Source of the DNA: Selaginella moellendorffii
Lineage: Eukaryota; Plantae; Lycopodiophyta
Assembly: GCF_000143415.4 (NCBI RefSeq)
Contig: NW_003314428.1
Location: 145,584 to 209,583 of the forward strand
Length of the DNA stretch: 64,000 nt
Direction: 5' to 3'
The notes below the pieces were generated by a model. It was not told the origin of the DNA. It did no database searches and worked only from the letters and a program-made list of their open reading frames with translations. The translations under genes and the position numbers were made by a program. Positions 5,158-55,918 of the stretch are shown piece after piece (the stretch's first letter is position 1; each line of letters begins with the position of its first letter).

Positions 5158-7385
5158 GCCTAAAAGGGATGCTAAAATTTTGGGCTAATGCAATTGAGTT
5201 GGATAGAGTCTAGAGTTAGAGTACAAAAGTGGCCATTGTGCTTTTTTAGAAAAGACCTTGTGCCTATAATTTTTTTTCAATTTGCCTTGGGTTAGACTAT
5301 ATAAGAGTAATAAAATCTCATTGATCTTCACTTGGTCTTGATGGCTTTACACCTTGGCTGAGGATAGTGATGTCCAACTTTGTTACTTGTAGTTTAGGTG
5401 TTAGTACCTGTATTATAGCTTTACCCATTAGGAGGTTGTATATAAGTCCATTTCATGATCTTCACTTTAGTTTCAATTGAGTGTTAGTTATTCGCAGCTA
5501 GCCTTTATAGTCATACTTAGAGCTATTAACTAAACCTATTAGTAAGCTTATTGCAGTTTGGATTTGAATAGTCATTTAGTTCAGACTTGTTTATATTCCT
5601 ATACATTATACTTAGAGTGTTACCTTTTTGTTAAACAAGTATATAACTCAATGATATAAGTTTTTGTTTGGGTCTTATAAAGGCAAATTGAAGAGTGATT
5701 GTTAGTTGCTTTGTGACTAGTGATTGCTTATAGATTTCATCAAGGATTGTTAACCTTGCTTTGCTGGATGATAATTTAGTAGTGATAAGCTTGCTTATTA
5801 GATAGTATTGTGGAGGTCATGTTGTTGGACTAGCATATTTTTTCCATGTTGGCATATTAATTCCACCTTTGTTAATATTGTTTAGTTGTGTTAGGGTGTA
5901 GTGTTAGATTGTACTAAGGTTAAAAGGTAGTGATTCACTCATTGATATGTTATCTATAATTGGATATTGATGAAGGATTGACCTCGAATACTAAGTAGAT
6001 ATCTTTGACCTTGGTTAGCTTAGTTGCTAAAAAGTTTTAAGTGGTGATTTACTCTTGCTTTCTTTTAGTTTTGTTCTAAAATTGGTGGCAATGAAGTGAT
6101 GCTTTGACATTAACATTGTTGAAGTTGAGATTGGAGTGAGATGCAATATTCTCCATAAGCATATTGAGGAAGTTTGATATTTCCATTTATGGTGATTCAG
6201 ATGGTTGGTGATTGGTTAAACTTCATTGCCTTATTAGAGATTAATATTTTGTTTCATTAGTCTTGATAAAGATGACATGTTCCTTAGATCATGGCGATCA
6301 GCTTGCTCCAACAGGAACTACAAGAAATTCTCACAGCGATCTCCTTGACTTGCACTCTTGATCAGCTTGCAAATGTGACATACATGGAGTTTACAGTTGT
6401 TGCTACTCCAGATTCCTTGTTCTTCAGTACCTTCACTGCTTCTTAATCTGGAGATTAGGGTACCACTTTGTGGCTCAGTTCTTGAGGAAGTAAGGACCTG
6501 CTTGTCAAAATGAAGCAAGCAGTTCTCAGTAGCAAGTGATAAAATCTGTTTCTGGCTCTCACATCCAGAAGATTGGTGGTACTCGTCATAGCGGTAGTTG
6601 TCGTTGTTAAAGTTGAAGATACATAGCTCGCCTCTGTGTCTCTTTCCGTTTCTGCTGGATTCTCCAAGAAAGTTCACTCTACCATTATGGAAACTGTTTG
6701 TCAGGCCTCCAATCCGGTAAGAGGCAAGGCTGAAGCTCTATAACACAGGGAAAAGAGGTTTAGTGAATCGCATAGCACAAGGTATATAAGATCGAATGTG
6801 CTTGGACTCGTACTGTTCATCTTTTTTACTGTAGTTATTATCATTTTCTTTTCCTGATTTTGTTCCTCGGGGCCTTCTTTCAATCCTTACTGTACAAGGT
6901 TTTTTTCTCTCTGCCATGGAAACCTTAGAGAGTCTCTTAGGGTCGACATGAATCAATGACAAGGTATCGCTAAGAAGTACTTTTTAACCTTCAACTCCTG
7001 AGGTGTACCATTAGGAAATGACGGCGAGTGGTTAACGAGAATTCAAATATGTTTCCCAGAAATTAGGTGTGAACGATCTAATACTAACGCGTGAATCTAA
7101 GCAGTAATGAAGAGCCAAGTCGTAATCGTTAATATACAGAAGAAAGAAAGAATCAACAAACCTGTAGATGTATGAGTGCAAAGGTCACAAGAAAAGTATC
7201 AGTAGATCCTCAAGTTAAATTTATGCGTATTAGGATTGTCGCATAGTTTTGCAGAAAATCGTCCATAGGAACTGCATGGAAATAAAAATTAGGCAGCTAG
7301 CACGCTCCTTTTTCTTTTTCTTTTTGTTTAGAAAAGCTCGCTTGCCATAGGTAGAATGTCCTGCATGCAAAAGTCCCTATTTAAA

Positions 7386-9329
7386 TTAATCTCTAAAAGA
7401 GAGAGACCTTAATGTATGTTTGAGTGCCAGAAGATGTGGGCCTGATCCAAAAGCTTGTGCTCGGTACAGTTGAATCGTCAAGCTGCATTGAGCCGAGAGG
7501 CAAAGAAAGTATGTCCTCAACAGATATAACATGCACTGATCCTTTCTCTGAGAAAAAGCCCTGAGAACTGAAGTATCAAAAGATGGCTTACTTGTTTCTT
7601 TTGCCTCCGTCCACATACTAAATGAAGCTTCAAGATCTTGCTTATCAGCATGGTCAAGGCTCTCAAAGTTTCGACTTGCAACACGCAATGATATTGCAGT
7701 TCGGATCAAATGCCTGCACAAAAATCAACTCACATAAATTTAAAAGGTCTTGTGCTCGTACTTGAGAAATCTTTTTCTTTGTTGAAAGTTTAGCTTGTCC
7801 AAAGAGGTTGGTAGGTGAGGCCAAGCATCGATTTCTTCGACTGTATCTTCGGCACTGTTACAACCTGACAGGGATAAGTAATAGGTTTTTCAAACTTATA
7901 CCCAGCACATTCATCTGTCCGTGCTTTGAGTAGCCTTTCGACTTCTAAGTCTTGAATGCAACCATACAAAAACTTCATTGCAGCTTCTGCTGGACCTGTG
8001 CATTCAGCTGCTGCAGATTTTTCTTCAATTACTTCTTTTATTTTCTCTAATTGCTGAAACAGACAGTACAAAGTTGAGTTTTGAGCTTTTAGCATAAAGT
8101 TTCTATTTACCTTTTTTTCTCCCCGAACATCTTCCTTCAATGCTTCATTACGCCCTAATAGTTGTTCCAAGTCTTCTTCCTCCATTTTTCTTTCCATTTT
8201 ATTTGCGAGATATTTCTCTGTTCACACATACTAAAACGTTTGTGATAGTGTTAAACGAGAAATCACCAAACCTCTAAGTTTAAAGACAAGCATCCTCATG
8301 GTCTTTTGATATGTTCCATTTCTTCTTATTAGATCATCTTCAAGCTACGTAAAGTATGCTGAGGTTGAATAAAGCGAAACATAAAAGCCCACTTCTTTTG
8401 CAAGGAGAATATGACGATGCATTCTAATGTTTTCTTCTACAAATTTCTCGTTCTTGTGCAGCAGTCCTTCCGTCTGTTTGATATGCACCACAAGCTCCCT
8501 AGACAGGTGCTCGTTTTCTATTATAGTTTTTTTCGTTTTCTGCATTTATAGCACGTCAATTCGCTTAATGTATCCATACAAGGAAACATACTGCATGGAG
8601 TTGCTCATGCGCTTGTTTTATCATGAGCTTCCTAGTATCCTCTATCCGAACAGCCATTTCCTTTTTAAGTCTTTCTCTTTCCTGAAGTGTTGCTCTTTCT
8701 ACGTCACTTATAGATTCCTGGTGCTCCTTCTTCTCTCTCTCAAGCTGCTCTTTTAAGCTAGTTTAAAGAGAATGATTGCAGAAACTTCCACTGTAAAAAC
8801 AATCGATTACCTCTTTGTTTCTTGTTCCAAAGCTTGCTTGGTCATCGTAAACTCGTTCAGATCTCGCAACTGGACTTGAGCATTGTCAAGCTGTAGCCGA
8901 AGATCTTCCAAAATAAACTTGCATCCATGCCTCATGTCTTGAATCTCTTTTGCTAAAGCCTCTGCGGATTCTGTTTTCTCTGCTTTAAGAGTTGTCAGCT
9001 CTTTTTCCAGACGTCCTGCTTTTTCTCCCTTTATCTTCACCTCTCTGCCAAATGAATGAAGAGACGGAAGTTTTTGTAAAATCCACTTACCCTGTCAAAT
9101 ATATAATAATATCATTGAATTTTTCTCCACGCTCCACGGCTTCAGAACGAATCTGGAGAATACTTCCAGCTAGCTTCTGTGATTCTTCTTCAAGCGCTTT
9201 CAGTTTTTCAAGCAGCTGCAAGATCTCGGCCTCCCTCTCACCGACTTTACGTTTTAAAATAGTTACTTCATCCTCGACAGGACCTTCATCTTTTTTCTTC
9301 CCTCCTTTTCCACCTTTCTTTGGTGCCAT
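7386..9329 (-). CDS. CFAP157: Cilia- and flagella-associated protein 157-like coiled-coil protein (multi-exon; 3' end approximate)
   Basis: ATG at 9329 (MAPKKGGKGGKKK). GT-AG introns include 9045-9090 and 8758-8810. The spliced product carries recalled CFAP157-like blocks in order: DIIIYL, LNEFTMTKQ, LKKEMAVRI, KTKKTIIENEHL, RRNGTYQKTMRML, LPTSLDKLNFQQRKRFL. Confidence 0.75.
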
Positions 9330-11299
9330 ATTGAGACACCTAACAACCCTAAATCCACATTCATTAGGCAATTGTTCATGTTTTAAATGCCCAACTAAGA
9401 AGCATGGGATGGATATATAGGAAACTATTTGGCATTCCTCAAATCGCTGGTTTCCAGCTTGAAATATCTAATCTTGTTAAGTCTTGTAGCATCAGAAATA
9501 TTTTCCTGGGCACACATTCTTGAGAATGGCAGGGATTATTCCTGTGCTGATTTCCCGGCATGTGAACTCTTCATAAAGCGTGAAATTTGCCATATCATAA
9601 ATTCGGAGAAACATTTCAAACACTCGTCGAATCAAGTAAAGCCATATCTTTGCTCAACAATTAAATAAATCTGTTTGTGTTTGGTTACATTGAGCATCAT
9701 CTCAGAAACATTTTGTTTCTTCAGTGATGAACGTGAAAGGCAACCGAAGAACATAGCTCCGTGGATTGAACTGCTGCAGCACTGCAAGCAACACTAGGCT
9801 TCCACAGCATCATGGTGCATCATCACCCAGAAGTAGCCCTGTCGAAGCATCAGCTGAGCCCAGACATAGCTCAGGTGCTAAAGCTTGAAGAACCTCAAGA
9901 ACCTCCTGCTCCAGGCACTGGAGAACGCCATTGGAAGTACGCCAGTATAAGGATCTGGTGAGTAGATGATAGGCTCCGTACCTTAGCTGGGCCGTCCAAA
10001 AGGACAGCCACGTATGCTGAGGCAGAGCCCTCACCCAAGCGACCATGAAGTTGGAGGGTACATGGCATAGCCTGCATGTTGACTGCTGCCACCAGGGATT
10101 GAGAACATGCTTCTGCTTGATTGTGAAATCTGGATGTGATCCAGGAAAGAAGAAGAGCTTTCACACGAAAAATGATATGGCTCCCAAGCAGGATGTGTCA
10201 GAAGTGTCGAAGTGTGTATACCCCTGCGACTACTTTCTTTTCCAGGGTCACATACTTCTGCTCTGAATCTGTGAAAGAGTGTGAAGTGAAGTAGGTAGCA
10301 TGTACGAAGATTTATTGGCAAAATCACACTTGGGCTTGGCATTCAATTTAAAGAGCATTCAAGATAATTCAAATAATGCATTAATGCATTACAAGAAAGC
10401 CATAGTCTCCTTCCTCAAAAGCCATGGATTGGAACAAGGTGATGTAAGCAAAAAGAAATATATGCAACTCAACAAGTTGTAATTGTGACTTTGTGTATTG
10501 AAAGATACTTGTCAGCTAGTCTTTTTAGATATTTTTTCTTACTGTCATGACAGCAGGAGGTGGATACTGTTAATTCCCTTTGTTAGTCTCCACCAAAGCT
10601 AGTAACTAGTAACTAGTAATCACATGTGCACTTGACCAGAAAAGTATAATGACAGAATTTCTAGATATTATTAGTCAAGTATACTTACCTGGTTAGAAAA
10701 ACTCATTCCTTGGCTTGTATTTGCTAGTGCTAAGAACCCCAACAATATTGTGTCTAATCCCTCAATATTGCTAAATGATAAATTGCCATGTCCACTAGAA
10801 CCCTCACTATCATGCCTCTTATGTTGACTATCTCTTGGGATTGGGGGTGATAGCCCAAGCTTTCATGTTACCCTCCAACCTTGCAAAGATTTTTGCCACC
10901 ATTAAAAAATATTGCATTGTGTAATATATGCATTCAATAATGGTCATCTAAGTCTGCCACTTTTCCTGCAATAATATTTATGATATCAACAACAAAATGT
11001 AGAATATGATCCAAGGACTATATAAGGAGGAGCCCCTCAAGATATAAAGCTTTGAAACATAGAGTGTTGTCAATTGGCATTGCGTGGAATTAACTGGGGG
11101 GGCGGGGGTTGATATGGGTGGTTTCAAATATATAGTAAAGATAGTGGTTGGAAGTATAGTGGACAACTAAAACATTAGTTTGGCACTATGTTGCTCTTTG
11201 TTTTTTGGGTCCCTGAACATCATAAGCTGAAGTTTGTGGTGGCTGCTTTACACACGAAGGGGTCAAAGAAGCAGAAGTTCTTTGTGAAGAATTATAGGC

Positions 11300-11540
11300 A
11301 AGGTTGACATAAACTATAGGAATATTCTAAGAATATACCATGGCCTGTGGGATTTAAGGCTGTAATGCCTTAAAGGTTGGGAGGTTGGCCTAGGGTTCAG
11401 TCTCTTATTCGTTTCATTGGTATCAGAGTACGACGTTCTTTAGGATGGTGGATGGTGAGATGTTGATTTTGGTGAGGAGTATGGTGTTAGTGATGATGGT
11501 CATCACGATGAGGAAGAAATTCTTGATGATGTCGTTGTCA
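11300..11540 (+). mobile_element. Family C LTR 3' end + tRNA-Met PBS + gag start (truncated)
   Basis: ...CGTTTCA TTGGTATCAGAG; reverse-complement match to ~2520-2755. Confidence 0.75.
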
Positions 11541-12428
11541 CTTCAAGGTTTACACGGACAATGTGGCAACGAAACACTTCTTGTCACAGCCCGACCTGAG
11601 AGGGAAACAAGGTCGGTTGGCCAATGCTTTGGCCAAGTTTGATTACGAGATTCTGTACAAGCCAGGGAAGAGCAACATCATGGCAGATGTGCTAAGTTGA
11701 AAAGCGAGCTTGAAGTTGGCGATATCCAGCGTGACAGCAACCTTTTGGGACGATGTGCAGACAGCATATGAGAACGATGGTCTAGCACAAGAAGTGTTGC
11801 TGAGGAATTTGGAGGCACGGAAAGCTCACTAGAGAGGTGAGCTGCCAACGGAAGAGAAAACGGGCTATGCGGAATGCAATGGACTCATCTATTACAAGCA
11901 AATGAGGATGTATGTTCCAGAAGGGGAACTAAGGAAGGTTGTCATGACGGACCTCTTGCGGGACACGGTACAGTGCCCAAGACGATGGGCTTACTCAAGA
12001 GGAAATACCACTGGCCAAATATGGCTAAGGATGTCCAAGACTATATAAAGACATGCCCAACATGTCAGTAGGTCAAAGCCGTGACTAAGGCTAGAGGGGG
12101 CTTGTTACAAAGCATCCAATTCCCGATCGTCCGTGGAAATGTCTTATGATGGACTTCATCACGGGACCCCCCCCAAGTGAGGGGTTCGATGCGATATTCG
12201 TGGTGGTGGACCAATTTTCGAAGATGGCACATTTCATACCCACCACAACGAAAGTGGATGCGGAAGGTGTGGTGAAGCTGTTTTTCAAACAAGTGGTTCG
12301 AGTGCGGGGAAGGCCAGAAGAGATTATCTCAGATCGAGATAAGATCTTCACCAGTAGGTTCTGGTGAACTCTCCTGGACCAGTATCGCACCAAGTTGAAA
12401 TTCAGCATAGCCTATCACCCACAGACAA

Positions 12429-12475
12429 GTATGGGGTATTAAGTCAAGTTTGATGGCACTAACACTTCTTGACAG
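12429..12475 (+). other. Putative spliceosomal intron 1 in retrotransposon integrase (47 nt)
   Basis: GTATGG...CACTAAC...TTCTTGACAG. Removal restores YHPQT(N)GQMERVNR (consensus HPQTDGQTERVNR). Confidence 0.8.
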
Positions 12476-12893
12476 ATGGACAAATGGAAAGGGTGAATAG
12501 GTAACTGGAGGATTATTTGTGATGCTATGTCTTGGGAGACCAGACCGATTAGGTAAGTCATTTGGGACTTGCGAAAATGTGTTATAACAACTCACCACAT
12601 TCGAGTATTAGGGTGAGTCCATGAGAAGTCATTAATGGGCGAGCTATTGAAGGTCCTGTGGAACTCGGCGTGGCCGAGTATCATGGAGAGTTACCCGCAG
12701 TGGAGGCATTCACGGCAGAAAGACTCAACATTTGGAATCTAGTGAGGGATTCCTTGGAACGGGCTCAACAAAGGCAAACCAAGTACGCGAACCAGAAGTG
12801 CCGGGATGTAGAGTTCCAAGCTGGGGAAAAGGTGTGGCTGAACACCAAGAACCTCAGGCTACCAAGAGGGATCAGCCGGAAGTTGACCCAAAG

Positions 12894-12944
12894 GTAAGAT
12901 GCATGTATTCCTATAAATGAATTGATCTTGAGTTCCTTAAGCAG
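12894..12944 (+). other. Putative spliceosomal intron 2 in retrotransposon integrase (51 nt)
   Basis: AG|GTAAGA...TTCCTTAAGCAG|GT. Removal restores KLTQRFAGPY (GPY/F module); the unspliced form has an in-frame TAA. Confidence 0.85.
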
Positions 12945-13727
12945 GTTTGCGGGGCCTTATGAGATTGAGGCACAAATCGGTAATTTGGCTTACTGTCTCT
13001 GACTTCCTCAAGAGATGGGAAAGATGCACCCAGTGTTCCACGTGAACTTACTCAAGCCGTACTTTGAGGATCCGCTTCGCAAGGACTAAGTAAGACCTTT
13101 ACCTGAGGTTGTCCAAGGGGAAGAGGCATATGAAGTCGAAGCCATCCTCAATGCGCGCAAGAGCAAATAACAAGGACGCGAGGTGAGAGAGTTCCATGTG
13201 AAGTGGAAAGGATTTCCACATTGCGAAGTAACATGGGAACCGGAGGAGAACTTAGCGAACGTGCGAGATTTAGTGGAGGAATTTCTGCAAGGCAGAACTC
13301 TATATACTTATGCAAAGTTCAATTAAAGTATCAATTTGTGAAGTTGACTAATGGCATTTGTTGGGACCCGAAGGCGCTCCGAAGATAAGCTAATTAGCAT
13401 GGGTTAGCTAAGTCGACCAGGCATAGTGAACTACGCCCAACTCCCCACAGGGATGTCGAATCCGTAGACGTATTCTACGGAGGTTGGGTTCAAGTCCCAA
13501 CCCCCTAGTAAAGCAAGGTTGGGTTCAAGTCCCAACCCCATACTAGGGCGTGGTGGGGTGAGGGGTATAGGGACACCTATATTCCGTTGTCATGGGCTCT
13601 TGGCTGGGGAGGCTAACTTAAGCACACCGCTAAGGGGGGGGATGCCCCCGGAGACATGGTCAACAAGTCGTAGGATAAAAAGAGACGTTCGATGAGGGTA
13701 TCAAACTTCTTCTATGGGTGGTGGAGT

Positions 13728-14421
13728 TGTAAGGAACCAACTCCCCAAGGTGTCATAGGCTAAAGGATCCCCGAAAGCATGACTGAAATGACAAAGAATT
13801 CATTGGATGGGACCGAGTCTGAGATCAAGTCCAAGACCGACTCTGAGACCGAGTTCAAGATAGAGTCCGGGTTCGAGTCCGAGGCCGACTCGGAGACCGA
13901 GTTCGAGGCCGAGTTCGAGACCAAGTTCGAGATAGAGTCCAAGATCTGAGATCGGGTCTGAGACTGAGTCCGAAGTCGAGTCCGAAGTTGAGTCCGAGAT
14001 CGGGTCCGAGATCGAGTCAAGATCGAGTCCGAGACCAAGTCCAAAGTCGGGTTTGAGATCAAGTCCGAGATCAAGTCCAAGACCGAGTCCGAGTACTAAT
14101 ACAAGTCAAGGGGTGAAAAGCCCAAAGTGTGCGTCTCCTCGGGGGGGGGGGGGCACTGCAGGGGGTTCCAAAAATATAGTAGGGATAGTGAGGGCCAGAA
14201 ACCAGCCTTGAAGGAACTCTTAAATGGTGCTTCCAAACAGACTTGAAGTTGAATTGGGTGGGTGGGACTGAGCCTAGACTCCGGTGGTGCTGGAAGGGGC
14301 AACCAAGGAAATGCTCAAGAGCAGGTCCCAATCCCGAAAGGGAAACCGACTACGGGGGTCCCGAGTCATGTGGAGTGGTGGCCCATTTGAGTACCTTATG
14401 GCTCATTGGTCCTCGGCCTTT
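13728..14421 (+). mobile_element. 3' LTR (LTR-B) of the chromovirus, running into an assembly gap
   Basis: PPT ATGGGTGGTGGAGT directly before TGTAAGGAACC at 13728; GAGTCC/GAGACC hexamer array; homologous to ~37740-38290. Confidence 0.85.
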
Positions 14422-14786
14422 NNNNNNNNNNNNNNNNNNNNNNNNNNNNNNNNNNNNNNNNNNNNNNNNNNNNNNNNNNNNNNNNNNNNNNNNNNNNNNN
14501 NNNNNNNNNNNNNNNNNNNNNNNNNNNNNNNNNNNNNNNNNNNNNNNNNNNNNNNNNNNNNNNNNNNNNNNNNNNNNNNNNNNNNNNNNNNNNNNNNNNN
14601 NNNNNNNNNNNNNNNNNNNNNNNNNNNNNNNNNNNNNNNNNNNNNNNNNNNNNNNNNNNNNNNNNNNNNNNNNNNNNNNNNNNNNNNNNNNNNNNNNNNN
14701 NNNNNNNNNNNNNNNNNNNNNNNNNNNNNNNNNNNNNNNNNNNNNNNNNNNNNNNNNNNNNNNNNNNNNNNNNNNNNNNNNNNNNA
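14422..14786. other. Assembly gap (N run)
   Basis: Run of N. Confidence 1.
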
Positions 14787-16470: not shown

Positions 16471-16892
16471 ATCCATACATGTCTTTGGAAAGAAGTGTAA
16501 AGTATAAGAATAAATCAACTCTTTCTTGTACAATCAATTCCAACTGCATCATTCTACTTTTTGAGCTTTTAATGAAGCTTTATGAGCTGTGATATTTCCC
16601 TACTGAAATATTTTCATTGATCCATGGGTCTTATACACCTAATAAAAAGTATCTATTCGTTTTAGAAAAAAACACAAGCATTTTGGCAGTGTGTTGTTAA
16701 GTCTGTTCTGGCAGAGACTAGACTGCAGTATAAGTAGGAACTTTCATGTCTAGGAACATATAATACAAACTTTGGATTACTGTACTGTGAAAAATAGGGG
16801 CTGTTTCAGCCAGCATGCGCCTGCCTCGGCCAGATGCACCATATGACGAATTGCGATGTTTATAGGACACAGGCGTGACTCAGTTTTGGGTT

Positions 16893-18460
16893 TCATTGAT
16901 GAATATTCTGAACATCCGCAAATGGATCGATCTCCGATGAAAAGGCAATGTAATTCACCATGCCAGAAAAGTTGTTATCAAACTTCTCCACCAACAAGCT
17001 GATTTCAGGTGGAGAGACTTTGAGGCCAGCTTTGCTACTCAATGTTTGGCTGAACTGGTGCTTGGTTACATGTCCCACAGCCTTGCTTGCATTCTTTGTC
17101 GTTGCAGCGTCTTCAAAGAAACCTCTCACGGATATCCGCTTTGCTTTACACTCTTTGCGGAGGTCAGCAAGCAAGTCCTGAACCCTCTCCTCCTTTTCGG
17201 GTCCTAAGTACACGATTCCCATCAGAAATCTTTGTGGTGCTAAGCTTGGGATTGGTGGAACCACAGGCACCTGTTGCACGAACGTATTAACAAACTCAAG
17301 AGAAAAGAAGATCTATGTCTTACAGACTGCCATGGAGTCTTTTCAAGTTCTTTGTAGGTAAAACATCTTTCAACTTCGTCACAAAAAGCTGTGTAGCAGA
17401 CGCGCAGCTCAGGGTCCTCCGGTACCCTGTAGCAGTCCATAAGTGCTTTGCAGCCTCGTTTACAAATTTTAATCTTTGCGTTATCTAGGCCAGCTGCAAA
17501 CTGAGCATCATTAATTAGCCTGAGCCTCAAGGGGTCGTAGCCCTTCATAAACTCGCGGACTCTGATCCTGTTTGTGTATACTTGAAACTTGACGTTATTT
17601 TCAGCATCACAAACACAGAAACCATCTGCTTGCACCTATACAACTCTTGCAGATAATAACTTTGGGGAATTGTTTTGCAAAGGAAGAACATCTTACCCGC
17701 CAGTGTTTCATCATTACAAGCTCGAAATCTTTACAAAACGGTATTGTAGATCCAAGGGTGGTGTAATACTCGTTGAAGTCACAGTATGTGACGGGGTCAA
17801 GAAGGCCAAATGACCGCATCAGAAAATTACAAATGGCTTGGTCTAGGGAAGTCTTCTCAGTCATTACTGACGACTGACATCTTGCGTTATAAGTTTCACA
17901 CAGCTTCGACAGGCTACACTGACCTCTTCCTTCCTAGAAAAGCAAAGGAGACTCCTAGTAAAATAAAAACATAAAGTTCAAAGGATGAATTACCAGGTCG
18001 ACTCTTTTGAACGCTTGATTGACTAGATTTTGGCGGAAGCCATTGAGCTTAAAAAACACGAAAGTAAATTATTATGAAGGCATTCATTTCTTAGCACCTA
18101 CCTTGCCTCTCATGCTAAGTAGAAACACCTTAAATTTAAATTTTCCATCCTCAACGTAATCGTTCAAGACGATGGCTAGCTCCTGCAAAAATAAGACAAC
18201 AAAACTCAAGACGCAAATGATGTTTTCGAAAATCCATACACCAGCATTGATATCAACTCCCGTTTGATTGATAAAATCGTCGAAGCGTGTTTTGGGAATG
18301 CAGCCAGCGGGGTCCATCTCCTTTTTTATTTTGGAGATAGCCTGGAAACTAGAAATGAAGACTTGTAATTGTTTATGTTACTAACCGCAAATCCCCTTGC
18401 GCCAATTCGAAGCAGCTGATCTCGGATGCATTCTAGCACAAAATAAATCGGGAGAACCAT
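16893..18460 (-). CDS. Multi-exon EF-hand protein: calcyphosin-like N-half + FAP115-like C-half
   Basis: ATG at 18460 (MVLPIYFVLECIRDQLLRIGARGFA). Calcyphosin-type blocks FLLSMRGK/LNGFRQNLVNQAFKRVD, YNA, FNEYY...DFELVMMKHW. A phase-0 intron at 17636-17696 joins to RIRVREFMKGYDPLR...FTYKELEKTP...FFEDAA...GHVTKHQF...VNYIAFSSEIDP; stop at 16893-16895. Confidence 0.7.
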
Positions 18461-28430: not shown

Positions 28431-29440
28431 ATGCTAACTGATACTTTAAGTACATACCTAAATCCTTGGGTTGTTCTAATATTTATTAAAAGTAACCCCA
28501 ACTACCATTTCAAGGGCATATATCTTCACCCATATTTGACATCCTATAGTTATCAACTCTAGTCTCATATTCATGAGCACTATCCTCAACTATATAAGGA
28601 TACTTTTATGACTCCTTTATTGTCTAGAAGTTCTTATCCTTCATGTGATCCCAACTATAGGTTTTTACCATAACCATATTAGCTAATTTGCTAAGTCAAA
28701 TGTTTATATAGATCACATCCTCAACTCTCTAAGAAAAACCTTCTACTATTCTCGAGATCCTAAAGTCGTTCTCTTATTGGCCCCTTTGTATCCACCACAT
28801 TCCCTACAAGTTCACATATGAACTAAAGTGGAGAGCTACACCCCATGACATGCTATTCTTTAAATGTAGCCCCACTCTTGGGACATTCAAATATCAACAC
28901 CAAATGGTGATATACTTAATGGCTAATATGATTCAGACTAAAGAATAGTTTTGATACAATGTTGTAAGAGATTAAATTTTCCATTCTACTTTAGTCACTT
29001 AACCACACTTTTGACCACTTGAGAATATGAATACAAGAAGTTATATTCAAGTATAGTAGCACCTCAAAAGAATTTATGAGGCTAATGTAAGTGACCAAAT
29101 TTTTCATTCTACCTTAGTCACTTAACCACATCTTCAACCACTTGGAAGAGTCTCATTCATAACCTTTATAAGACCTATTCTCAACTTGGTCCAAGTGCTG
29201 TGATCCTATGATAGACACCCAAAGGTGCCATTGACTTATCAGCCCATTACACTAAGGTTATGTCCATTCAACTTTGTTTCATTGGTAGTCCAAAACCACC
29301 TGTACTACAGTCCCACCTTTCAAAGATTGGGCCATTTATCCATGAATGGTCATTCCAAGACCACATCTTAACATCCTTAAGATGTTCGAAGACATGGGGA
29401 ACACCCTTCCCCAATGTCTCTTCTTCAGTCCCCACCAAGT

Positions 29441-30022
29441 TGTAAGCAACCAAAGGGAACGACTCGAGAGATGATCCTTGGGGTTCAAATATAGAGGGAA
29501 AGGGCCCATGAACAAGAGTGCACCCCCTTTTCCAATCGGTTAAGGGTCTTGGGATATTTGAGGTTAAGCGTCCTTGGGTGTGAATAGTACTGGGCTGGGT
29601 GACCTCCCGGGAAGTCCAAACTCATGAGCTTACATTTGGTATCGGAGCGGTCTCGGGTCCGACTCTGTTGGTTGGCTAGCACATGTTGATTGACATCTGG
29701 CTGGTCCAGTTTGCTCCCGCTGGGCTCGACCCAAGGGGTAGGGTGTCAAGAGAGCGAGGCTCTCGGGAGAGCTGCGGCTCTCAGCTTCTGTTCACGAGGG
29801 CATGAACTTGCAGGGAAGCGTGGTGGATTGTAAGCAACCAAAGGGAACGACTCGAGAGATGATCATTGGGGTTCAAATATAGAGGGAAAGGGCCCATGAA
29901 CAAGAGTGCACCCCCTTTTCCAATCGGTTAAGGGTCTTGGGATATTTGAGGTTAAGCGTCCTTGGGTGTGAATAGTACTAGGCTGGGTGACCTCCCGGGA
30001 AGTCCAAACTCAGGAGCTTACA
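29441..30022 (+). mobile_element. Cassandra TRIM #1, intact (582 bp)
   Basis: 194-bp LTRs 29441-29634 and 29829-30022 (TGTAAG...CTTACA); PBS TGGTATCGGAGC; PPT GGGAAGCGTGGTGGAT; TSD CAAGT on both sides; 5S-like core in each LTR. Confidence 0.95.
29562..29617 (+). promoter_or_regulatory. 5S rRNA-derived Pol III internal promoter (A-box/IE/C-box) in Cassandra LTR
   Basis: GGTTAAGCGTCCTTGGGTGTGAATAGTACTGGGCTGGGTGACCTCCCGGGAAGTCC versus plant 5S AGTTAAGCGTGCTTGGGCGAGAGTAGTACTAGGATGGGTGACCTCCTGGGAAGTCC; repeated in the other Cassandra LTRs. Confidence 0.9.
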
Positions 30023-32651
30023 CAAGTCTCTCTCCAATCATGGCCATGCTCACCAACACTACTATTGGGTTAGGGTTTAAAGGCCCGACCACTAAGTCTT
30101 ATTGTCCTTTAGGACTTCTTCACTATGTGACCATATCCTTGGTCACTACGTAAGAGGACTATTCCTTTTCCTTTCTAGAGTTTAGAGCTTTGGGATGACA
30201 TTTTCAAAATTCCGTGGCTCTATGTGAGCCTCGTAATAACTCTCCTCACCTTCTGCCCTTAGGTGCCCTAGCTATGTGGCTAGAGCAAGGTTTGGAAGAG
30301 CCACCCTAGGTATCCAAGTAGGTAATGCCACCCACACTTGGATTAGGAGTATTGACTATTTGATCTTCTGGGGGAGCTAAAGCCACCTCTTGAACACTTT
30401 ACACCAAGTTACCCCATTTGTCTGTCCATATTCACTCTAGCTTTGGACTCCTTAGTGGTTATATTATCACTTGTGGGTATAGCCTTCCTTGGTCACACTA
30501 ATTTTTCCTAGCTAAATTGGTTCCACTCAAGAAATGAGCATGAAGTAATCGATGAATGAGTCTCTAGAAAGGGACACAAGAAGGATTGACACATGGCAAG
30601 TGTTGTGACATATGGAAGTGTTAGGACCTAGTCCAAGATGGAGTTCAATAAGGAGTTTGAGATGGAGTTTGAGTTGGAGTATGAGAAGGAGTCTGAAATA
30701 GAGTTTGAGATTAGAGAGGTATATGCATTTTGCATCGTGATTTTCGCACAAAGGCATTTCCTGAGTCAGGAATTGAGATCAAGATTTCTCCCGGTCTAAA
30801 TTCTTGACTTGGATGACTGGGCATGTAGTGGTTATATAGGCTGGTGATAGCACGCCAGACCTATCCCTTTTCTATCTTTTTATATCCTTGGCCATAATAA
30901 CATACACTCCACTTGCTCAATATCTACTCTTCTCTTCCATGCCTATCTTACTCACTGCCTTCTGGGGATCAAGGCTGTGAGATGTGCATCAATCTCAGCA
31001 TCAACATCTTTGCAACAGCACATGGCTAAGTATTTCTTTCCTTTTTATGTTTGGATCTAGTTTAGATTAGAGAGGATTCACAAGATCATTGTAGAGGTGA
31101 TTTTGTAGTTTTCCACTTTGGCGACCACGGTGGGATAGGCGAAGTGAAGAGCACCCAAAGAACAAATACTGGAAGCCTTAGCCACAACTAAAAGAACAAG
31201 CCGAAGTCAAGAATCAAGGGAAAAGTCAAAAAGAAACAAAAAGAAGAAAATCGACAAAAATCTACAGCAAGAAGCATGGCAAACATGCTAGAGACCAAGC
31301 GCTTGAAGACTATGATCATCTAGTGATCGCCCACTTCTCAGAAAGTCCAAGCATCTTCCATAACCGCCTCTTGGCGAGAGGTTGATGACAAAGAATATTC
31401 TGCATAACAGAATATTTGAAGAATCTCCGACAAGAAATCAGAGCAAGCAAATGTTAACGAGCATGAAAACATAAAGAACCCTTGAAGATTAAAGCCACCC
31501 AAGTCGCAGAAAACTTGGGGTGTGAGCGTAATCGCTTTTAGTGAGAGGTTGAAGAAAACGAATATATCAAGAATCTGCGACAAAGAAACGACTAAAGAAA
31601 AATTCTAGCAGCTGGCGATGGAGGAAGAATGAAAAAGCACGACTACCCATTTGGAGATACAAGCTGTACAAGATACAAGGATTGTCTTTTGTGTGGTTTC
31701 AGAAATTGTGCAAAACCATACAAGCAATGCTATCCAAAATGGCAATGCAATACTTGCAAGCAAGCGAAAGAAAGACTCTGAATCAGGGATGAAAGTGCTA
31801 CAGTAGAAGAGAGAAAGAAACGGGAAGCAATAGCCAAAGAAGATGACACTAAAAAGAGTAACGATAGTTTAGAAAAAGAAGAGAAACAAAGCTTTGGTTG
31901 CTTTCAAAAACTTCAAGAAACACTTTTGAGACTCTCTTACAAATTGTCTAGCAAATAGGAAGAATGCGAAAATGAGGAAATGTTGAAAGAAAAACATGTT
32001 TACTTCGATTTCTTTGCAACTCGAAGAACCCTGACTTGGGTGTATCGTGGACACATCTTTCAACAGACAATTATCGAATTCCTAGGCATACATAAACATG
32101 AAACTTTTCAACCATTAATGTTTGTTTTCAACACTGATTTGACGAGAGTTATAGCAGGAACAGAGTGTGGAACCATTAAACCACAAGTTCATTGGTTTGT
32201 TGACACACTTAGATTTAGGGATTTTGAAGAAAATGCAAAATTACTTTATCAACTTCTTTAAAGTCCTCTAGGTGTAACTCTACCAACAAGCACCCTTAAC
32301 GAACTATACACTATAGCATATTGGCATCGTTTAGGATGGACAAGAATAGCTGGAGAATTAAGGAATCAAGAACAAGTCAATCAACAAATTCGAATTGAGA
32401 ATTTGAGTTCAAGAAACCGACGGGAACCTCAACAACAATAAATTTTAGAAACGATTTTAAACAAGTACGACAAAGAGGATAAACAAATTCAAGTTGCCGA
32501 GTCGAGCAACCCAGTTAAAGATAACAAAGAACTGAATATCAAAGACACCCCAGAGTTTGAGACATTTGAAGAAGCAGAATACACAGCACCAGATTACTCA
32601 AATCCAGACTCGCCAGAACAACAACTCAACCAACAAAGTCTACAACCGCCT

Positions 32652-33789
32652 ATGGCAATCATTAATCCGATGAGTACAATTGGAAGCATGGTTACATATC
32701 CAATTTTCACAGGAAGTAAGACAGAAGATTCAGAATTACATGTAAAACAATTCAACCAGATTGTCAAAATGAACAATCAAGAACAGCATCAAGACATACT
32801 TTTCCCATACACACTTAAAGGAAAAGCTCTTGAGTGGTATAATACTCTAGAGGATTTTGTACCACATGATGAGAAACTTGAACAATTCAAGGAACAATTA
32901 CCAGCTGGAGGAACACCAGAGGAGCATTATGAGCACATTAAGAATATAAAACAGCAACCAAGGGAAGGAATTCAAGACTATACTAGACGATTCAAATTAC
33001 ATGCAAAGAAATGTAAAGATCTCATTACTGACAAAGGCAAGAGTTTGTCTTATATACAAGGATTACGAGAAGCCTATCGCAACATGATTGCATTGGCTGA
33101 TACACCAGATGAAGAAAGTGTTGATGCACTATCTCAAGGAATCTTAAAACTAAAACGAAGGACATTCTGTTTCAGACTGTAAATTCCAATTACCCAAATG
33201 TCAAATTTGTGATAGAGAAGGACATATAGCCAAGAATTGTCGATATAGGAATATCACCGAAGTTTCAAAAGTAGAAAATGTTCAACGAGGAACACCACGA
33301 CAAAATTATCAAGGAAACAACAATCAAGAACAGAGACCACCAAGAAACTATTATTATCAAGATAATCAACAATATAATCAAGGATATAATCGTGGATATA
33401 ATCCCCCACAAAATCAAGACTATAATCAAGGACAAAATGATTATAGAAGCAATTACAACCAACAACGATACAATGGACACCAAAACAATTATCAACGTCC
33501 ACAATGGAACAACTACAACCAAAGCCAACAAAGGCAATATAACAATTACAACAATCAAGCCTTGCAACAGCATTATCAACCAAGACAAAATCGACCGCAA
33601 GAAAATCAAATTCGACAACAATACAATGCACAAAACCAAAGAGTCAATCAACCTCCTGCTGGAAGACCACCAGCAGCACGAGTAGTTCAACCAGAAGTTG
33701 AAGAACAACTAATGACTGAAGAACTAGAAGTTTTGGCAATCACTAGAACACAATATGAATGTCAACAACCTGATAATTATGAAGAATAA
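32652..33789 (+). pseudogene. gag (frameshifted)
   Basis: YPIFTGSKTED...FPYTLKGKALEWY...IKQQPREGIQDYTRRF; zinc knuckle CQICDREGHIAKNC at ~33198-33240; N/Q-rich tail. Confidence 0.85.
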
Positions 33790-34035
33790 GATGAAAGTGA
33801 TGACGCGATAGAAATCGAGAATACCGAGTGGAAAAAGAGTAAGAAAATACTTAACACCATTCAACAAGAGCTTCGAAACAAAGATCCCGAAATTATTAAT
33901 GATCAAATATACAATCAAGACGACCAAACTCAAGTATTAAGCTTTACTCAAGATGAGCATACAACCATTGTTGAGCACATACTACAGCAGGGAATTACTT
34001 TAACCCTACAGCAAATACTGCAAATAGCACCATAT

Positions 34036-37000
34036 ATGAAAGACCAAATCTTGAAGATCTGTAATCGAAGGATCCCTGAAGCTTGCACACAAGAAAAACA
34101 CCAATCTCAACCAACACAACAAGAACAAGCTGAAAGAATCCAACCTGGTGATTATGATGATAATGTACCTTGTATCAACGTACACATCGGCAAAAATCAT
34201 ATTGAAAGAGTTATCCTTGATGGAGGTTCTGGGGTTAATATCATCGAATATGCACTATGCAAAGCTTTAGGATTGGGCAATATACAAGCTACACCATTCA
34301 ATGTACGCATGGCTGATCAAAGAGTTGTCAGACCAGCAGGCATCATTCGTGATGTCTCTATGACAGTCAAAGGACATAAATTTAAAGTTAACTTTGTTGT
34401 GTTAAAAATGCCAATTGAAGAATCTTCTTACGAAATCTTGTTAGGCAGACCTTGGCTTAACAAAGCTGTTTCTGCACAGTATTGGATGGAACATGAGATA
34501 TGTATCCAATCCCAACAAGGACAAACTAAAATATCAACATTGACAAGCAAGAAAATCTCAAGAAGTTTCCGACCAACACAAGTTCAAGAATACAATTGGC
34601 AAGAAGGCTTAGACAATCTTGAAGAAGCTAAATTATTTGAAGCATATCTTGAACTTAAGGCAATTCAAGAAATTGACCTCAACAGGATACTCCCTATAAC
34701 CAAGTGTCAAGACTATGAAGATTCAAAACAACCTCATTTAAAGAAGAAACATACAACAAAAACTACCGTACAAAAAGCAAGACCAGCGATACAACCCGAA
34801 AAACTACAAACTACAGAATATCACCTAGATATACAAGACAAATCCGCACTCACCACTGAAAATCAAGAATTCAAACTTTGCGTAAATATCAATGACGATA
34901 TTGAAGAATTAAATCTAGGGGTTCCCTCAAACCCACAAAACATCTTAATAGCTACACAACTCGACAAACCATTTAAACTTGAGGCTATTACACTCCTTAC
35001 TAAGTATAAAGATGTCTTTGCGTGGTCATATAAAGACCTCAAGGGTATACCACCTGAATTATGTACACATCAAATCGAATTACTTCCAGGAGTTCGACCC
35101 ATTAAACAAACTGCTTATCGGATGAATCCAACATTTGCTGAGAAAGTAAAAGCTGAAATTAACAAGCTCCTTGAAGTAGGATTCATATATCCAATACAAA
35201 ATGCCCAATGGCTATCACCTTTAGTCATTGTACCCAAGAAAAATGGGAAATTACGTATCTATGTAAACTACAAGAAGTTAAATGATGCCACAACGAAAGA
35301 TGCCTTTCCCATCCCATTTTCAAATGAAATACTTGATGCCGTTGCCGGACATGAGATGTACTCATTTCTTGACGGTTTTTCAGGCTACAATCAAGTACAT
35401 CTAGCTGTCAAGGATCAACATAAAACAGCTTTCATAAGTCCATGGGGAGCATACACATACATGCGAATGCCATTTGGATTAACCAATGCCCCATTTACAT
35501 TTCAACGGATCATTACCGATACCTTCCAAGATTATCTCACAGATTTCATGCGAGTCTTTATGGATGACTTTAGTGTCTTTAGACCTAAAGACAAACACCT
35601 TGAATACCTCGAGAAATGTTTTATCAAATGCAGACAAAACCAAGTTGCTCTGAATCCTGAAAAATGCACTTTCTTTGTTAAATCAGGCATACTATTTGGC
35701 CACATTGTTTCCACTCAAGGCATTCAAATCGATAAAGCTAAAACAGACGTCATTATGAAAATGCAACCACCTTATGATCTTAAAAGCTTGCGTAGTTTTC
35801 TGGGCAAGATGGGTTACCATAGAAGATTTATCAAGGACTATGCCCAAGTCGCTACACCATTAACTAAGTTACTTAAGAAAGACAAATTCTATCACTGGAC
35901 TCAAGAATGTCAGCAAGCATTCTTGATACTTAAAGAAAAACTTACACAGGCACCAATTCTAGTCCAACCAAACTGGACTCAAGAATTTCTTGTACAAGTT
36001 GATGCTTCTGACTATGCGCTAGGAGCAATTCTGTGCCAAAGAAAAGATGATCATCGTGATCACCCAATATATTATGCAAGTCGACGACTTTCTCCACCTG
36101 AAATGAATTATACAACCACAGAAAAAGAAGCCTTAGGCATGATATATGCCTTGACCAAATTCCGACATTATTTACTTTCCAACAAAGTCAAAATATTCGT
36201 TGATCATCAAGCATTGATTCATCTACTCAACAAACCCATCCTTAGCGGATGAATAGCAAGATGGTTTTTGTTATTACAAGAATTCAATTTTGAAATAGTT
36301 CACAAACCAGGCAAATACCATGAACAAACTGATCATCTCAGTAGAATTACAACTGGAGAAAATATACAAGACCCCAATGATTACCTGATTCACATCTTTT
36401 TAAGATTACCACCCACGATACACTTCAAGAAATCTTTAATTATTTAACAACTACAACAGTTCCCACATCATGTACCACGCAAGATCAAAGGAAACAATTT
36501 GTCTTGAGGACATGATGATACTCAGTCGTCGGAGGAAGACTCTATAGAATTGGACATGATAATATATTAAGAAGATGTGTACGTTCACAAGAAGAGATAC
36601 ACACGTTACTAGAAGAAGCCTATGCAGGTTGCTCTGGAGGGCATTTTGCAGAAGAAATTACAGCAAGGAAAATATTGCAAGCAGGCCTATGGTGGCCTAT
36701 ATTATGGAAAGACACTTCATAGTTTTGTCAAACTTGTGATATTTGTCAGCGTACACAATTTCCACCCAAGAAACAAACACAAGAACTGAATCCGACTATA
36801 GCAATGGAACCTTTCCAAAGATGGGGCCTAGATTTTGTAGGACCCATACAAAAGAGCAGAAATGGAAATCAATATATTTTGGTAGCAACAGATTATATGA
36901 CAAAATGGGCAGAAGCCCAACCACTCAAGAAAGCGACAGCAAAGAATACAGCAAAGTTTCTTTATGAAATGATTATCACAAGATATGGACTACCTCGAGA

Positions 37001-37283
37001 AATAGTAATGGATAGAGGAACACATTTCCTCAATGAAACAATCAAGATTTTACTAGACGAATTTTTCATCAAACATAAGAAATCTACACCATATTATCCA
37101 CAAGGTAACGGCCAAGCCGAATCCACAAACAAAACACTCAAGAATATACTGAAGAAAATAGTGCAAACCAATCTTAAAGATTGGGATAATTGAGTGTATG
37201 ATGCTCTTTGGGCTTATAGAACAGCATATAAAGTTTCAACAAATTCAACTCCATTCAAATTAGCTTATGGACTTGAAGCTTTG
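34036..37283 (+). pseudogene. pol: protease, RT, RNase H, integrase core (interrupted by stops and frameshifts)
   Basis: ILDGGSGVNII; LDGFSGYNQ, MPFGLTNAP, FMDDF; VDASDYALG, TEKEALG; WGLDFVGP, YYPQGNGQAE. Confidence 0.95.
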
Positions 37284-38741
37284 TGTAAGCTCCTGAGTTT
37301 GGACTTCCCGGGAGGTCACCCAGCCCAGTACTATTCAAACCCAAGGACGCTTAACTCCAATTATCCCAAGACCCTTAACCGATTGGAAAAGAGGGGTGCA
37401 CTCTTATTCATGGGCCCTTTCCCTCTATATTTGAACCCCTATGGATCGTCTCTCGAGTCGTTCCCTTTGGTTGCTTACAATCCACCACGCTTCCCTGCAA
37501 GTTCACGCCCTCGTGAACGGAAGCTGAGAGCCGCAGCTCTCCCGAGAGCCCCGCTCTCTTGACACCCTACCCCTCGGGTGGAGCCCAGCGGGAGCAAACT
37601 GGACCAGCCAGATGTCAATCAACATGTGGTGTGATTCCCCTAGCCACCCAACAGAGTGGGACTCAAGACCCCTCTGATACCAAATGTAAGCTCCTGGGCT
37701 GGGTGCCCTCCCGGGAAGTCCAAACTCAGGAGCTTACATTAGTCCGAGACCGACTCGGGGACCGAGTTCGAGTCCGAGTTCGAGACCGAGTTCGAGACGG
37801 AGTTCGAGATCCGAAATCGGGTTCGAGACCGAGTCCGAGGTCGAGTCCGAGGTCGGGTCCAAGATCGGGTCCGAGATCGAGTCCGAGATCGAGTCCGAAC
37901 CCGAATCCGAAGTCGGATCCGAAATCGGGTCCGAGATCGAGCCAGAGACTAAGTCCAAATACTAATACGGGTCAAGGGGTGAAAGCCCAAAGCGTGCGTC
38001 TCCCAGGGGGGGGGGGGGCTGCAGGGGGTTCCAAAAGTATAGTAGGGATAGTGAGGTCCAGGAACTAGTTTAGAAGGGACTCTCCAGTGGGGCTCCCAAA
38101 CTGACTTGAGGTTGGGACTGGGACCGAGGGGCCTTGGGTGGGAGTGAGCATGGACTTGGTTGGTGCCGGAGGGGCCATCCAAGGAAGTGCTCAAGAGCAG
38201 CTCCCACTCCCGAAAGGGAAACCGATTGCGGTGCTCCCGGCTCAAGTGGAGTGGTGCCCCACTTGAGTACCATGCGGCTCATTGGTCCTCGCCCTTCCTA
38301 GGGGCTTGGGCCTTCCTTCGGGATGGAAGTGGGGGGCGAGAGGTACCCATACCGGGCCGCTAGGCCACGGTGTTTCGCCTCGGCGTCCTGAAGCAAGTGT
38401 TGCACTCAAGACTTGGGATTTAGAGGGTCCCATGATCAAGTCTTGTGGTACCAAAGGATGTTAGGAACCTGGAAGCTTGGTGTGCTTGGCTGCTTGTGCT
38501 TGCGGGGAGTGTAGCCGAACCTTAAGTCCAATCTAACCCGGGGAGGGGGATTGGGAGTGATTTGGGAATCCGTGGATGGTGGCTAACACTCCATTGCTCG
38601 TGCAGTGAGTAGCTGAGACCAAGTAGGAGCTGGTACCATAGGCGAGAACCTTGGCAAGGGAACTTAGCAAAAGCCAAGGCGGTGTTGGACGGATAGGCGA
38701 GGTAAGCTGGCAAATTGGAAAGGAAAAATTTGTGGCTTACA
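37284..38741. mobile_element. Composite insertion in integrase: Cassandra #2 (minus) + partial LTR-B (plus)
   Basis: Cassandra LTR 37284-37479, internal region and PBS, rearranged LTR end 37685-37738, then LTR-B to ...GTGGCTTACA 38741. CTTTG flanks both ends; removal restores YGLEAL-TPLEY. Confidence 0.9.
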
Positions 38742-38746
38742 CTTTG

Positions 38747-54127: not shown

Positions 54128-54534
54128 ATGGATCCTCTCTTAAGTCGTTCTCTTTAATTTCTTACAATCCACTATGGTCTTGTGTAAGTTCACGCCCTCA
54201 TCAACAAAAGCTGAGAGCCACAACCCTCCTAAGAGCCCCCACTCTCTTGACACCCTACCCCTCAGGTCAAGCCTAGCTAGAGTAAACTGGACTTGTTAGA
54301 TGTTAATGAACATGTGGTGCAATTCCCCTAGCCAATCAATAGAGTCGGACCCTCAAGACCCGCTCTGATACCAAATGTAAGCTCCTGAATTTGGACTTCT
54401 CAGGAAGTTTCTTAGCCTAATACTATTCAAACCTAAGGATGTTTAATTTAAGGGTGCACTTATTCATGGGCCCTTTCCTTTTATATTTAAACCCCATGGA
54501 TTGTCTCTCAAGTCATTCTTCTTGGTTACTTACA
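54128..54534 (-). mobile_element. Cassandra TRIM #4 (degenerate, one LTR cut by LTR-A)
   Basis: GCTCTGATACCAAATGTAAGCTCCTGAATTTGGACTTC...; homologous to 37441-37690 and 37284-37479. Confidence 0.85.
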
Positions 54535-55396: not shown

Positions 55397-55918
55397 GTCC
55401 GAGATGGACCCAAGTTCGGGTCTGAAGTGGAGTCCGAGATGGATCCGAAGTGGAGTCTGAAGTGGAGTCCGAAGTGGAGTCCGAGGTGGACCCGAGATGG
55501 AGTTCGAGATGGAGTCCGAGGTGGACCCGAGATGGAGTCCGAGGTGGAGTCCGAGGTGGAGTCTGAGATGGACCCGAGATGGAGTCCGAGATGGACCCGA
55601 AATGGAGTCCGAGATGGAGTCCGAGATGGACCCGAGATGGAGTCCAAGGTGGAGTTCGAGATGGACCCGAGATGGACCCGAAATGGAGTCCGAGATGGAC
55701 CCGAGATGGAGTCCGAGATGGACACGAGATGGAGTCCGAGATGGAGTCCGAGATGGACCCGAGATGGAGTCTGAGGTCGAGACCGAGATTGAGACCGAGA
55801 CCAGAACCGAGACCGAGACCGAGATCGGGACCGAGACCGAGACCGGGGCTGAGGCCGAGACCAAGCCCGAGTCCGAGTCCGAGTCCGAGTCCGAGTCCGA
55901 GTCTGAGTTCGAGTCTGA
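55397..55918. repeat. GAGTCC/GAGATG/GACCC-based tandem array in LTR-A
   Basis: GGACCCGAGATGGAGTCCGAGAT-type units; also at ~61206-61658, 53345-53918 and 52235-52460. Confidence 0.95.

Follow-up and report, generated by a model that had tools for sequence, protein, structure and literature searches.

Cassandra and a hybrid LARD family as putative parasites of a Galahad-type chromovirus lineage in Selaginella moellendorffii

Results

Retroelements at the locus

The window, by which we mean the entire 64,000-nt stretch of Selaginella moellendorffii DNA that was analyzed (positions 145,584 to 209,583 of contig NW_003314428.1), holds a decayed chromovirus, a family of LARDs, four copies of the TRIM Cassandra and a non-chromovirus Ty3/gypsy element (Table 1).

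Table 1. Retroelement features of the window (position 1 is its first nucleotide)
Feature	Positions	Strand	Remarks
Chromovirus pol 3' fragment: RNase H end, integrase, SH3-like region, chromodomain	11560-13302	+	PF00385, E 3.4e-15
Chromovirus intron, GT-AG, 47 nt, in integrase core	12429-12475	+	skipped in one X16 contig, covered in DNA run X1
Chromovirus intron, GT-AG, 51 nt, 5' of GPY motif	12894-12944	+	skipped in the same X16 contig
Chromovirus 3' UTR	13303-13727	+	homologous to LARD 59282-59667
Chromovirus hairpin, spacer, PPT	13687-13727	+	hairpin 13687-13706; motif position
Chromovirus 3' LTR	13728-14421	+	cut by N gap 14422-14785; mixed loose contig ends at 13728 mark the LTR start
LARD leader, copy C	28735-28960	-	Cassandra-homologous
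Cassandra copy 1	29441-30022	+	194-nt LTRs, 5-bp TSD; antisense in LARD LTR; hairpin at 29790
Non-chromovirus Ty3/gypsy element	30712-41921	+	in-window control; non-Met PBS, no chromodomain
Cassandra copy 4	37286-37739	-	5' LTR is an inverted terminal piece; hairpin 37501-37518
Chromovirus-type solo LTR	37741-38743	+	82% to 13876-14420
AGGA-loop hairpin of non-chromovirus element	41479-41500	+	17 nt 5' of its 3' LTR
LARD leader, copy B	49955-50180	-	Met PBS; Cassandra-homologous
Cassandra copy 2	50876-51457	+	antisense in LARD LTR; hairpin 51237-51254; 3' LTR lacks last 12 nt
Cassandra copy 3, older	54128-54534	-	antisense in LARD LTR; own 3' LTR cut by LARD LTR
LARD leader, copy E	54914-55164	+	interrupted by LARD A; Cassandra-homologous
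LARD A, complete, 7.5 kb	55165-62654	+	LTRs 55165-56914 and 60974-62654; 5-bp TSD
LARD A leader	56917-57115	+	Met PBS, then Cassandra-collinear internal domain, PPT and first 30 nt of Cassandra LTR
LARD hairpin, spacer, PPT	60933-60973	+	37/41 nt identical to chromovirus block

The chromovirus survives in the window only as a 3' fragment (about 11560-14421), decayed by stops and a frameshift. The 5' part of pol is absent, no gag, reverse transcriptase (RT) or primer-binding site (PBS) of its own lies within the window, and just the RH end and INT of the gag-PR-RT-RH-INT order are visible there. The chromodomain is situated at the integrase C-terminus, 5' of the polypurine tract (PPT), with aromatic residues at the cage positions. 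Two GT-AG inserts sit at points where homologous integrases run uninterrupted, and one contig of run X16 skips exactly the 47 and 51 nt of both, in agreement with the initial annotation, which had described the element as intron-bearing. As raw RNA reads are nearly absent from this stretch (9 and 1 reads in the raw RNA runs, with 0 splice joints), the case for splicing is this single contig of a run that is RNA only by guess. In the DNA run X1, 23,064 contigs match the chromovirus stretch, inserts included, and the family is by this count abundant.

Two contigs of run X7 display a chromovirus-type LTR end followed by a tRNA-Met PBS, which was accordingly observed behind an LTR 82% identical to that of the fragment and not on the 13728 fragment itself. 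The chromovirus leader is visible for only about 20 nt past this PBS, so that a Cassandra-like leader may also exist in the chromovirus itself. The solo LTR at 37741-38743 lacks its first ~150 nt. Two candidates for the missing 5' end were rejected, namely 1052-1490 as a 5' LTR, which has no PBS after it, and the PBS at 11418, which belongs to another LTR type. This other LTR family has Met PBSs at 2646 (minus strand) and 11418 (plus strand), and at 11309-11560 an LTR end and PBS of this family directly adjoin the RNase H fragment of the chromovirus. Sister families with the same LTR promoter core exist: a 34-nt LTR core 5' of the poly-G tract (37976-38009) is common to the chromovirus, the LARD and at least one further family, which has deep coverage in runs guessed to be RNA. 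The long "ORFs" at 14192-14421 and 58679-58964 extend over N gaps in the chromovirus LTR and the LARD interior, respectively, and are artefacts.

In its LTR of more than 1 kb with a poly-G tract, its Met PBS and its group I chromodomain the chromovirus has Galahad-type traits. The earlier label "Galadriel-like" is borne out to the extent that this structure fits SM1-Galahad; a quick tree of 108 rows and 103 columns, in which Galadriel had no named reference, did not place the element, which falls in no starred set (51/104 forks open). Its best identity is 60%. A search with the chromodomain alone returned no matches.

LARD A combines two LTRs, PBS, PPT and TSD with a length of more than 4 kb and no detected gag or pol, as is characteristic of LARDs. 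Its coding capacity was probed with Pfam, which gave no match, and by tblastn with 8 pol proteins, which gave none under E 0.5; the longest stop-free frame is 105 aa, 286 nt of the element being hidden in the N gap at 58679-58964. The family is multi-copy, copies A and B being 84% identical over 2.5 kb, with further fragments elsewhere.

Cassandra copy 1 is 582 bp long, with a PPT, a 5-bp TSD and no coding region. All four copies have a Met PBS, and their internal domains span 194-205 nt. The 5S rRNA model (RF00001) matches 5 Cassandra LTRs; one match, of 38.2 bits, reaches the gathering score (cut-off 38) and the other four fall below it. The model has no match in copy 3, whose internal domain stands at K 0.22 from that of copy 2. 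The 5' LTR of copy 4 (37686-37739) is a 54-nt piece with an internal inversion, both ends of which read as LTR termini. This antisense copy and the adjacent chromovirus-type solo LTR share one 5-bp TSD pair (37281-38748) inside the non-chromovirus integrase, an arrangement left either by a single composite integration or by nested insertion and a later deletion between the 6-nt ends that the two have in common. At 50726-52159 there is a 428-nt tandem duplication of LARD LTR sequence, 99-100% identical, with Cassandra in one unit and the other empty; the two units may represent a filled and an empty allele that the assembly placed side by side.

The non-chromovirus element, which we provisionally label OTA-like, is itself inserted in a LARD LTR. 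It was considered as a Cassandra helper and rejected on account of its different PBS, its different ends and the lowest block score (see below).

A hairpin 5' of the PPT

The initial annotation had drawn attention to a hairpin with an AGGR loop, followed by a PPT, at 13687 (chromovirus), 60933 (LARD), 51237 and 29790 (Cassandra). These strings are present as reported, and the LTR starts at 13728, 60974 and 51276 each lie 21 nt past the stem, in keeping with the reported spacing of about 21 nt. Two more Cassandra blocks occur on the minus strand, one intact at 37501-37518 and one degenerate at about 54190. The stem is a perfect 8 bp in the LARD and 7 bp in Cassandra, the two differing by one compensatory pair or by two, according to the register chosen, and that of the chromovirus has one mismatch and one G-T pair. 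The motif pattern has 9 matches in the window against 0.98 expected, a pattern derived from the motif itself, with 4/9 matches not at a PPT. Folding of 7 whole pre-LTR segments did not rise above shuffles (z -1.1 to +1.3), and we rejected folding energy as evidence for the hairpin. In a 250-nt context the stem is predicted with a probability of ~0.95 or more in the LARD, the non-chromovirus element and the Cassandra block at 51237; the chromovirus copy reaches about 0.6, and the Cassandra block at 29790 stays below 0.1. Likewise rejected as evidence of covariation was a count of 76/78 paired cells, because the 13 rows behind it were chosen for having the hairpin. As for the other shared traits named at the outset, the tRNA-Met PBS is present in both Cassandra and the LARD, and the CTTACA terminus is seen in the LARD, Cassandra and two chromovirus-type LTRs (ending at 38743 and 1490); the N gap conceals the terminus of the LTR that starts at 13728.

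We then compared outside Ty3/gypsy loci, fetched by integrase similarity with the motif left out of the query (19 from a viral collection and the best 80 of 543 from metagenomes). Junctions were located in 51/99 loci, 8 by an LTR pair and 43 by an error-prone PPT rule, and 48 loci were dropped. A hairpin was scored on at least 5 Watson-Crick pairs and a purine-GG-purine loop 15-40 nt 5' of the LTR. Within this sample of viral and best-scoring metagenome loci it was recovered at 24/51 junctions against 404/10,200 shuffles (4.0%), at 6/8 of the junctions fixed by an LTR pair, and in 9/24 families delimited at 70% integrase identity, the remaining 27/51 junctions falling outside the rule; 22 of the 24 hairpin junctions place the loop 22-29 nt from the LTR. 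Two loci missed by the junction rule (L013 and L017) form perfect AGGA hairpins and cluster with a protein of Tanacetum (97% SH-aLRT), a group which we take to be Tekay-like. One large outside chromovirus family (L001-L005, L044, L054, L072, L074, L079, L086, L091, L092, L097) has a variant hairpin, the loop of which measures 3 to 5 nt, contains GGA and lies 23-24 nt 5' of the LTR. Scans of viral contigs with the Tanacetum pol protein, the exact hairpin-PPT pattern and the non-chromovirus integrase gave no matches. In published rosid Cassandras the loop reads AGGA or AGGG, and the stems of Malus and Prunus differ by a compensatory change (PMC7215508).

The hairpin had been put forward as a common cis signal used by one helper, a reading to be abandoned if the motif were equally common in unrelated gypsy/copia families. 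Its presence in many unrelated gypsy families, as well as in the non-chromovirus gypsy element of the window, means that it is not private to one helper, and the claim of specificity largely falls in this comparison of gypsy families. We are confident that the hairpin is generic among gypsy elements; it is thus an old and widespread gypsy feature that Cassandra shares, and, in a comparison confined to gypsy and leaving copia aside, it puts Cassandra on the gypsy side and names no family.

Sequence links among the three elements

The LARD and chromovirus 3' UTRs align with 261/418 identical columns (62%; score 219.5 against a shuffle maximum of 76) and their LTRs with 228/379 (60%). The last 41 nt before the LTR are far more alike, at 37/41, a level that 0/355 windows of the UTR reach (mean 26.1). 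The LARD very probably stems from this chromovirus lineage.

At its other end the LARD resembles Cassandra. All four LARD leaders are collinear, from the shared Met PBS onward, with the whole Cassandra internal domain, its PPT and ~30 nt of its LTR. In pairwise comparisons of leader and Cassandra, 15/16 pairs outscore all 100 shuffles, and profiles of either element match 3/4 copies of the other in each direction (E 7e-8 to 9e-5). We hold with high confidence that the LARD leader is homologous to Cassandra. None of the four leaders retains the 4-nt loop or the TG junction; since loop and TG are present in distant Cassandras, their absence from the LARD is probably a derived condition, and this speaks for capture. 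The notion of a 5S remnant in the LARD leader was rejected, 37-187 of 200 shuffles scoring as high. Around the LTR end and PBS, LARD and Cassandra are moreover identical over 21 nt, and recombination at the DNA level could for that reason likewise produce such a hybrid.

The direct similarity between Cassandra and the chromovirus is slight. The terminal 55 nt of Cassandra (42 before and 13 into the LTR) score 18 against the chromovirus and 13 against the LARD. Among 53 outside junctions the highest score is 8, and the non-chromovirus element, which is the one other family of this genome in the ranking, scores -13.5. The margin comes mostly from the LTR end: the 42 nt before the LTR alone score 7.5 vs 6.0 for L013. 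The hairpin-PPT blocks match at 26/40 (score 27.5 against a shuffle maximum of 25.5). The first nucleotides of the LTRs match at 12/13, within the shuffle range for local alignment and above all 53 outside junctions (maximum 9). TRIM-partner pairs have been reported to have 79-98% LTR identity (PMC4717578); between Cassandra and the chromovirus only the terminal 13 nt and CTTACA match, and long LTR identity to a helper is not expected for Pol III TRIMs (PMC10886601).

Ages and nesting

Pairs of LTRs differ by K2P distances of 0.021 and 0.023 in Cassandra and 0.028 in the LARD. For the element that contains the chromovirus-type solo LTR, K is 0.018, and the solo LTR is younger than that element. 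The LTR ages in the window overlap; they do not discriminate, because the non-chromovirus element is of the same age. All four Cassandras are antisense in LARD or chromovirus LTR sequence, which makes up 22% of the window (chance 0.002-0.009, post hoc). Three independent insertions (29441, 50876, 54534) lie, all antisense, at LARD LTR positions of about 1270, 992 and 1280. We rejected this nesting as proof of a shared integrase, the test being post hoc and the non-chromovirus element being in a LARD LTR as well.

Discussion

A chromovirus lineage as candidate helper

Cassandra is among the oldest and most widespread parasites of plant retrotransposons, and a previous account states that nothing indicates which family mobilizes it (PMC10886601). 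The initial annotation had suggested a single chromovirus helper that mobilizes both LARD and Cassandra in three tiers. The lineage holds up as a good candidate, on the strength of the LARD-chromovirus homology, the Cassandra-like LARD leader, the best-ranked terminal block, the Met PBS and the overlapping ages; the shared hairpin is no evidence for it. The tiers find no support, as the LARD encodes nothing, and both parasites would therefore depend directly on an autonomous element; we saw no sign that Cassandra depends on the LARD. Given that the LARD shares its LTR and 3' UTR with the chromovirus and its leader with Cassandra, both parasites are likely to be copied in trans by this lineage. 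We posit that a single Galahad-type chromovirus lineage is likely exploited by two parasites, Cassandra and the LARD, and that the LARD is likely a hybrid of chromovirus and Cassandra-related parts. As far as sequence comparison can tell, the helper of Cassandra probably belongs to this lineage, and we lean slightly against its being this exact family. Counted against the proposal are the second Met-PBS family in the window (2646, 11418) and the near-random distribution reported for Cassandra in pear (PMC4079214).

In the mechanism we envisage, a Galahad-type chromovirus would supply Gag, RT, RNase H and integrase to both parasites, its enzymes priming them with tRNA-Met and recognizing similar PPTs and TGTAAG/CTTACA-type ends. 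The LARD would have descended from the chromovirus lineage, its cis block being kept by selection, and its ancestor would have acquired the Cassandra segment through a switch at the 21-nt identity of LTR end and PBS. The switch may have been by template switching in a shared particle, which we put at roughly even chances, or by DNA recombination, and the spare priming site in the LARD leader would have decayed thereafter. On this account the LARD would be another parasite, and one into which elements often insert, instead of a middle tier. As to the hairpin, its fixed distance and the known role of tracts upstream of the PPT make us favor, if only somewhat, an action in the RNA at plus-strand priming, where it would help set the plus-strand primer. 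Purine tetraloops of retroviral packaging signals bind nucleocapsid, and a role as nucleocapsid or packaging site is possible and carries less of our confidence. Taken in its entirety, the scenario is tentative: Cassandra may parasitize Galadriel/Galahad-type chromoviruses and be co-packaged with them, one template switch at the primer site may have founded a LARD family with a disarmed Cassandra as its leader, and the mimicked purine-loop hairpin may represent an undescribed Ty3/gypsy cis element that extends from fungi to plants.

The strongest rival is that Cassandra is a generalist, which with generic gypsy signals (Met PBS, hairpin, G-rich PPT and TG..CA ends) uses several Met-primed families, the LARD leader having arisen by DNA recombination at the shared PBS and being uninformative about particles. 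It owes this rank to the sister families noted above and to our having compared only one other family of this genome. The generic nature of the hairpin favors it, as do the Met PBS in all four Beta chromovirus clades (PMC3605345), the wide differences among Cassandra PPTs from different plants (PMC10853983), and a sugar-beet preprint that takes a network view and argues for generalist mobilization (10.64898/2026.03.01.708851). The 21-nt identity at the LARD/Cassandra junction and the location of 4/4 Cassandras inside LARD or chromovirus LTRs would furnish substrates for the recombination. However, the captured segment runs in the sense direction from the PBS, unlike the 4 insertions, every one of which is antisense, and the 12/13 terminal match exceeds every one of the 53 outside junctions (maximum 9). 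We regard generalist use as unlikely.

Descent could also have run in the opposite direction, with the Cassandra internal domain of this genome derived from a chromovirus or LARD leader instead of captured by it. In its favor, the homology is collinear from the PBS onward, and the few bases that follow the chromovirus-type PBS look to the eye like those of the LARD leader. TRIMs can moreover arise by deletion (PMC4717578), and Cassandra-like TRIMs without 5S occur in Asteraceae (PMC10853983). Nevertheless, rosid Cassandras possess the looped hairpin, PPT and TG junction, so that the LARD state looks derived, and an identity of ~55% in non-coding DNA would be hard to retain since the origin of Cassandra; this polarity is improbable. 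Least probable of all is a family-specific hairpin by which one chromovirus family mobilizes LARD and Cassandra in three tiers, for even though loop, 21-nt spacing and stem base are the same in all three elements, the Cassandra block ranks nearest to chromovirus and LARD, and the block is highly conserved between the latter two, the hairpin recurs in 9/24 outside families (from the 19 viral and best 80 of 543 metagenome loci) and in the non-chromovirus gypsy of the window, and the LARD has no proteins to offer.

Comparison with known systems

The capture of a Cassandra leader by a descendant of a chromovirus, our preferred reading, can be set beside several known systems. Like known Cassandra TRIMs (PMC7215508, PMC10853983, PMC10886601), the window copies have a 5S-derived LTR segment and a Met PBS; at 582 bp they are close in size to fern Cassandras (565-606 bp; PMC10853983), and as in rosid copies a looped hairpin lies 5' of the PPT (PMC7215508). 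A Cassandra in a lycophyte would exceed the range of monocots, dicots and ferns given in PMC10853983. Unlike earlier accounts of Cassandra (PMC10886601), the present one offers a candidate lineage together with a LARD bearing a Cassandra-type leader.

SM1-Galahad, a Galadriel-clade element of Selaginella moellendorffii, resembles the window chromovirus in its ~1.1 kb LTR with poly-G, its Met PBS and its group I chromodomain (PMC3350952). Its ORF ends after the integrase core and is followed by two short ORFs, as two introns would give (PMC3350952). That paper reports neither introns nor parasites (PMC3350952), and we liken the two elements by description, not by sequence. Tcn1 elements, for their part, are mostly self-priming (PMC6317226).

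In the LARD/partner pairs Dasheng/RIRE2 and BARE-2/BARE-1 an element of more than 4 kb without coding capacity shares its LTR and 3' region with an autonomous relative, as is the case here (PMC4079214, 10.64898/2026.03.01.708851); unlike in those pairs, the leader of the window LARD is homologous to a TRIM of another lineage. Complex elements formed by template switching (PMC1950507) provide a precedent for two RNAs recombining during reverse transcription into a fused element, as is proposed here. The parents of those elements were of one family and a third LTR was retained (PMC1950507), whereas the parents in the present case differ, only 30 nt of the second LTR are recognizable and the product became a family.

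The T-box/U-box of retroviruses, Ty1 and Tf1 (PMC10085805) is likewise a conserved element just 5' of the PPT, and a pyrimidine-rich spacer follows the stem in our elements too. The T-box/U-box is a short linear tract (PMC10085805), in contrast to the stem described here, whose purine loop lies 22-29 nt from the LTR. A full-text literature search, largely of papers outside subscription, turned up neither an account of the pre-PPT hairpin nor one of a LARD leader derived from Cassandra. The stem-loop, which in unrelated gypsy families keeps a nearly constant distance from the PPT, offers a cis element whose part in reverse transcription or packaging can be tested, and it can serve as a marker that assigns gene-less elements to the gypsy side. 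The hybrid LARD family, for its part, is a fossil link that names the lineage to test as helper of Cassandra.

Other features of the window

The non-chromovirus element has ~700 aa of extra sequence (38642-41314) fused in frame after its integrase tail, with no match in Pfam. Two compact host genes with short introns lie on the minus strand at about 6300-9330 and 16890-18450, one coiled-coil-like by eye and one with a weak EF-hand match.
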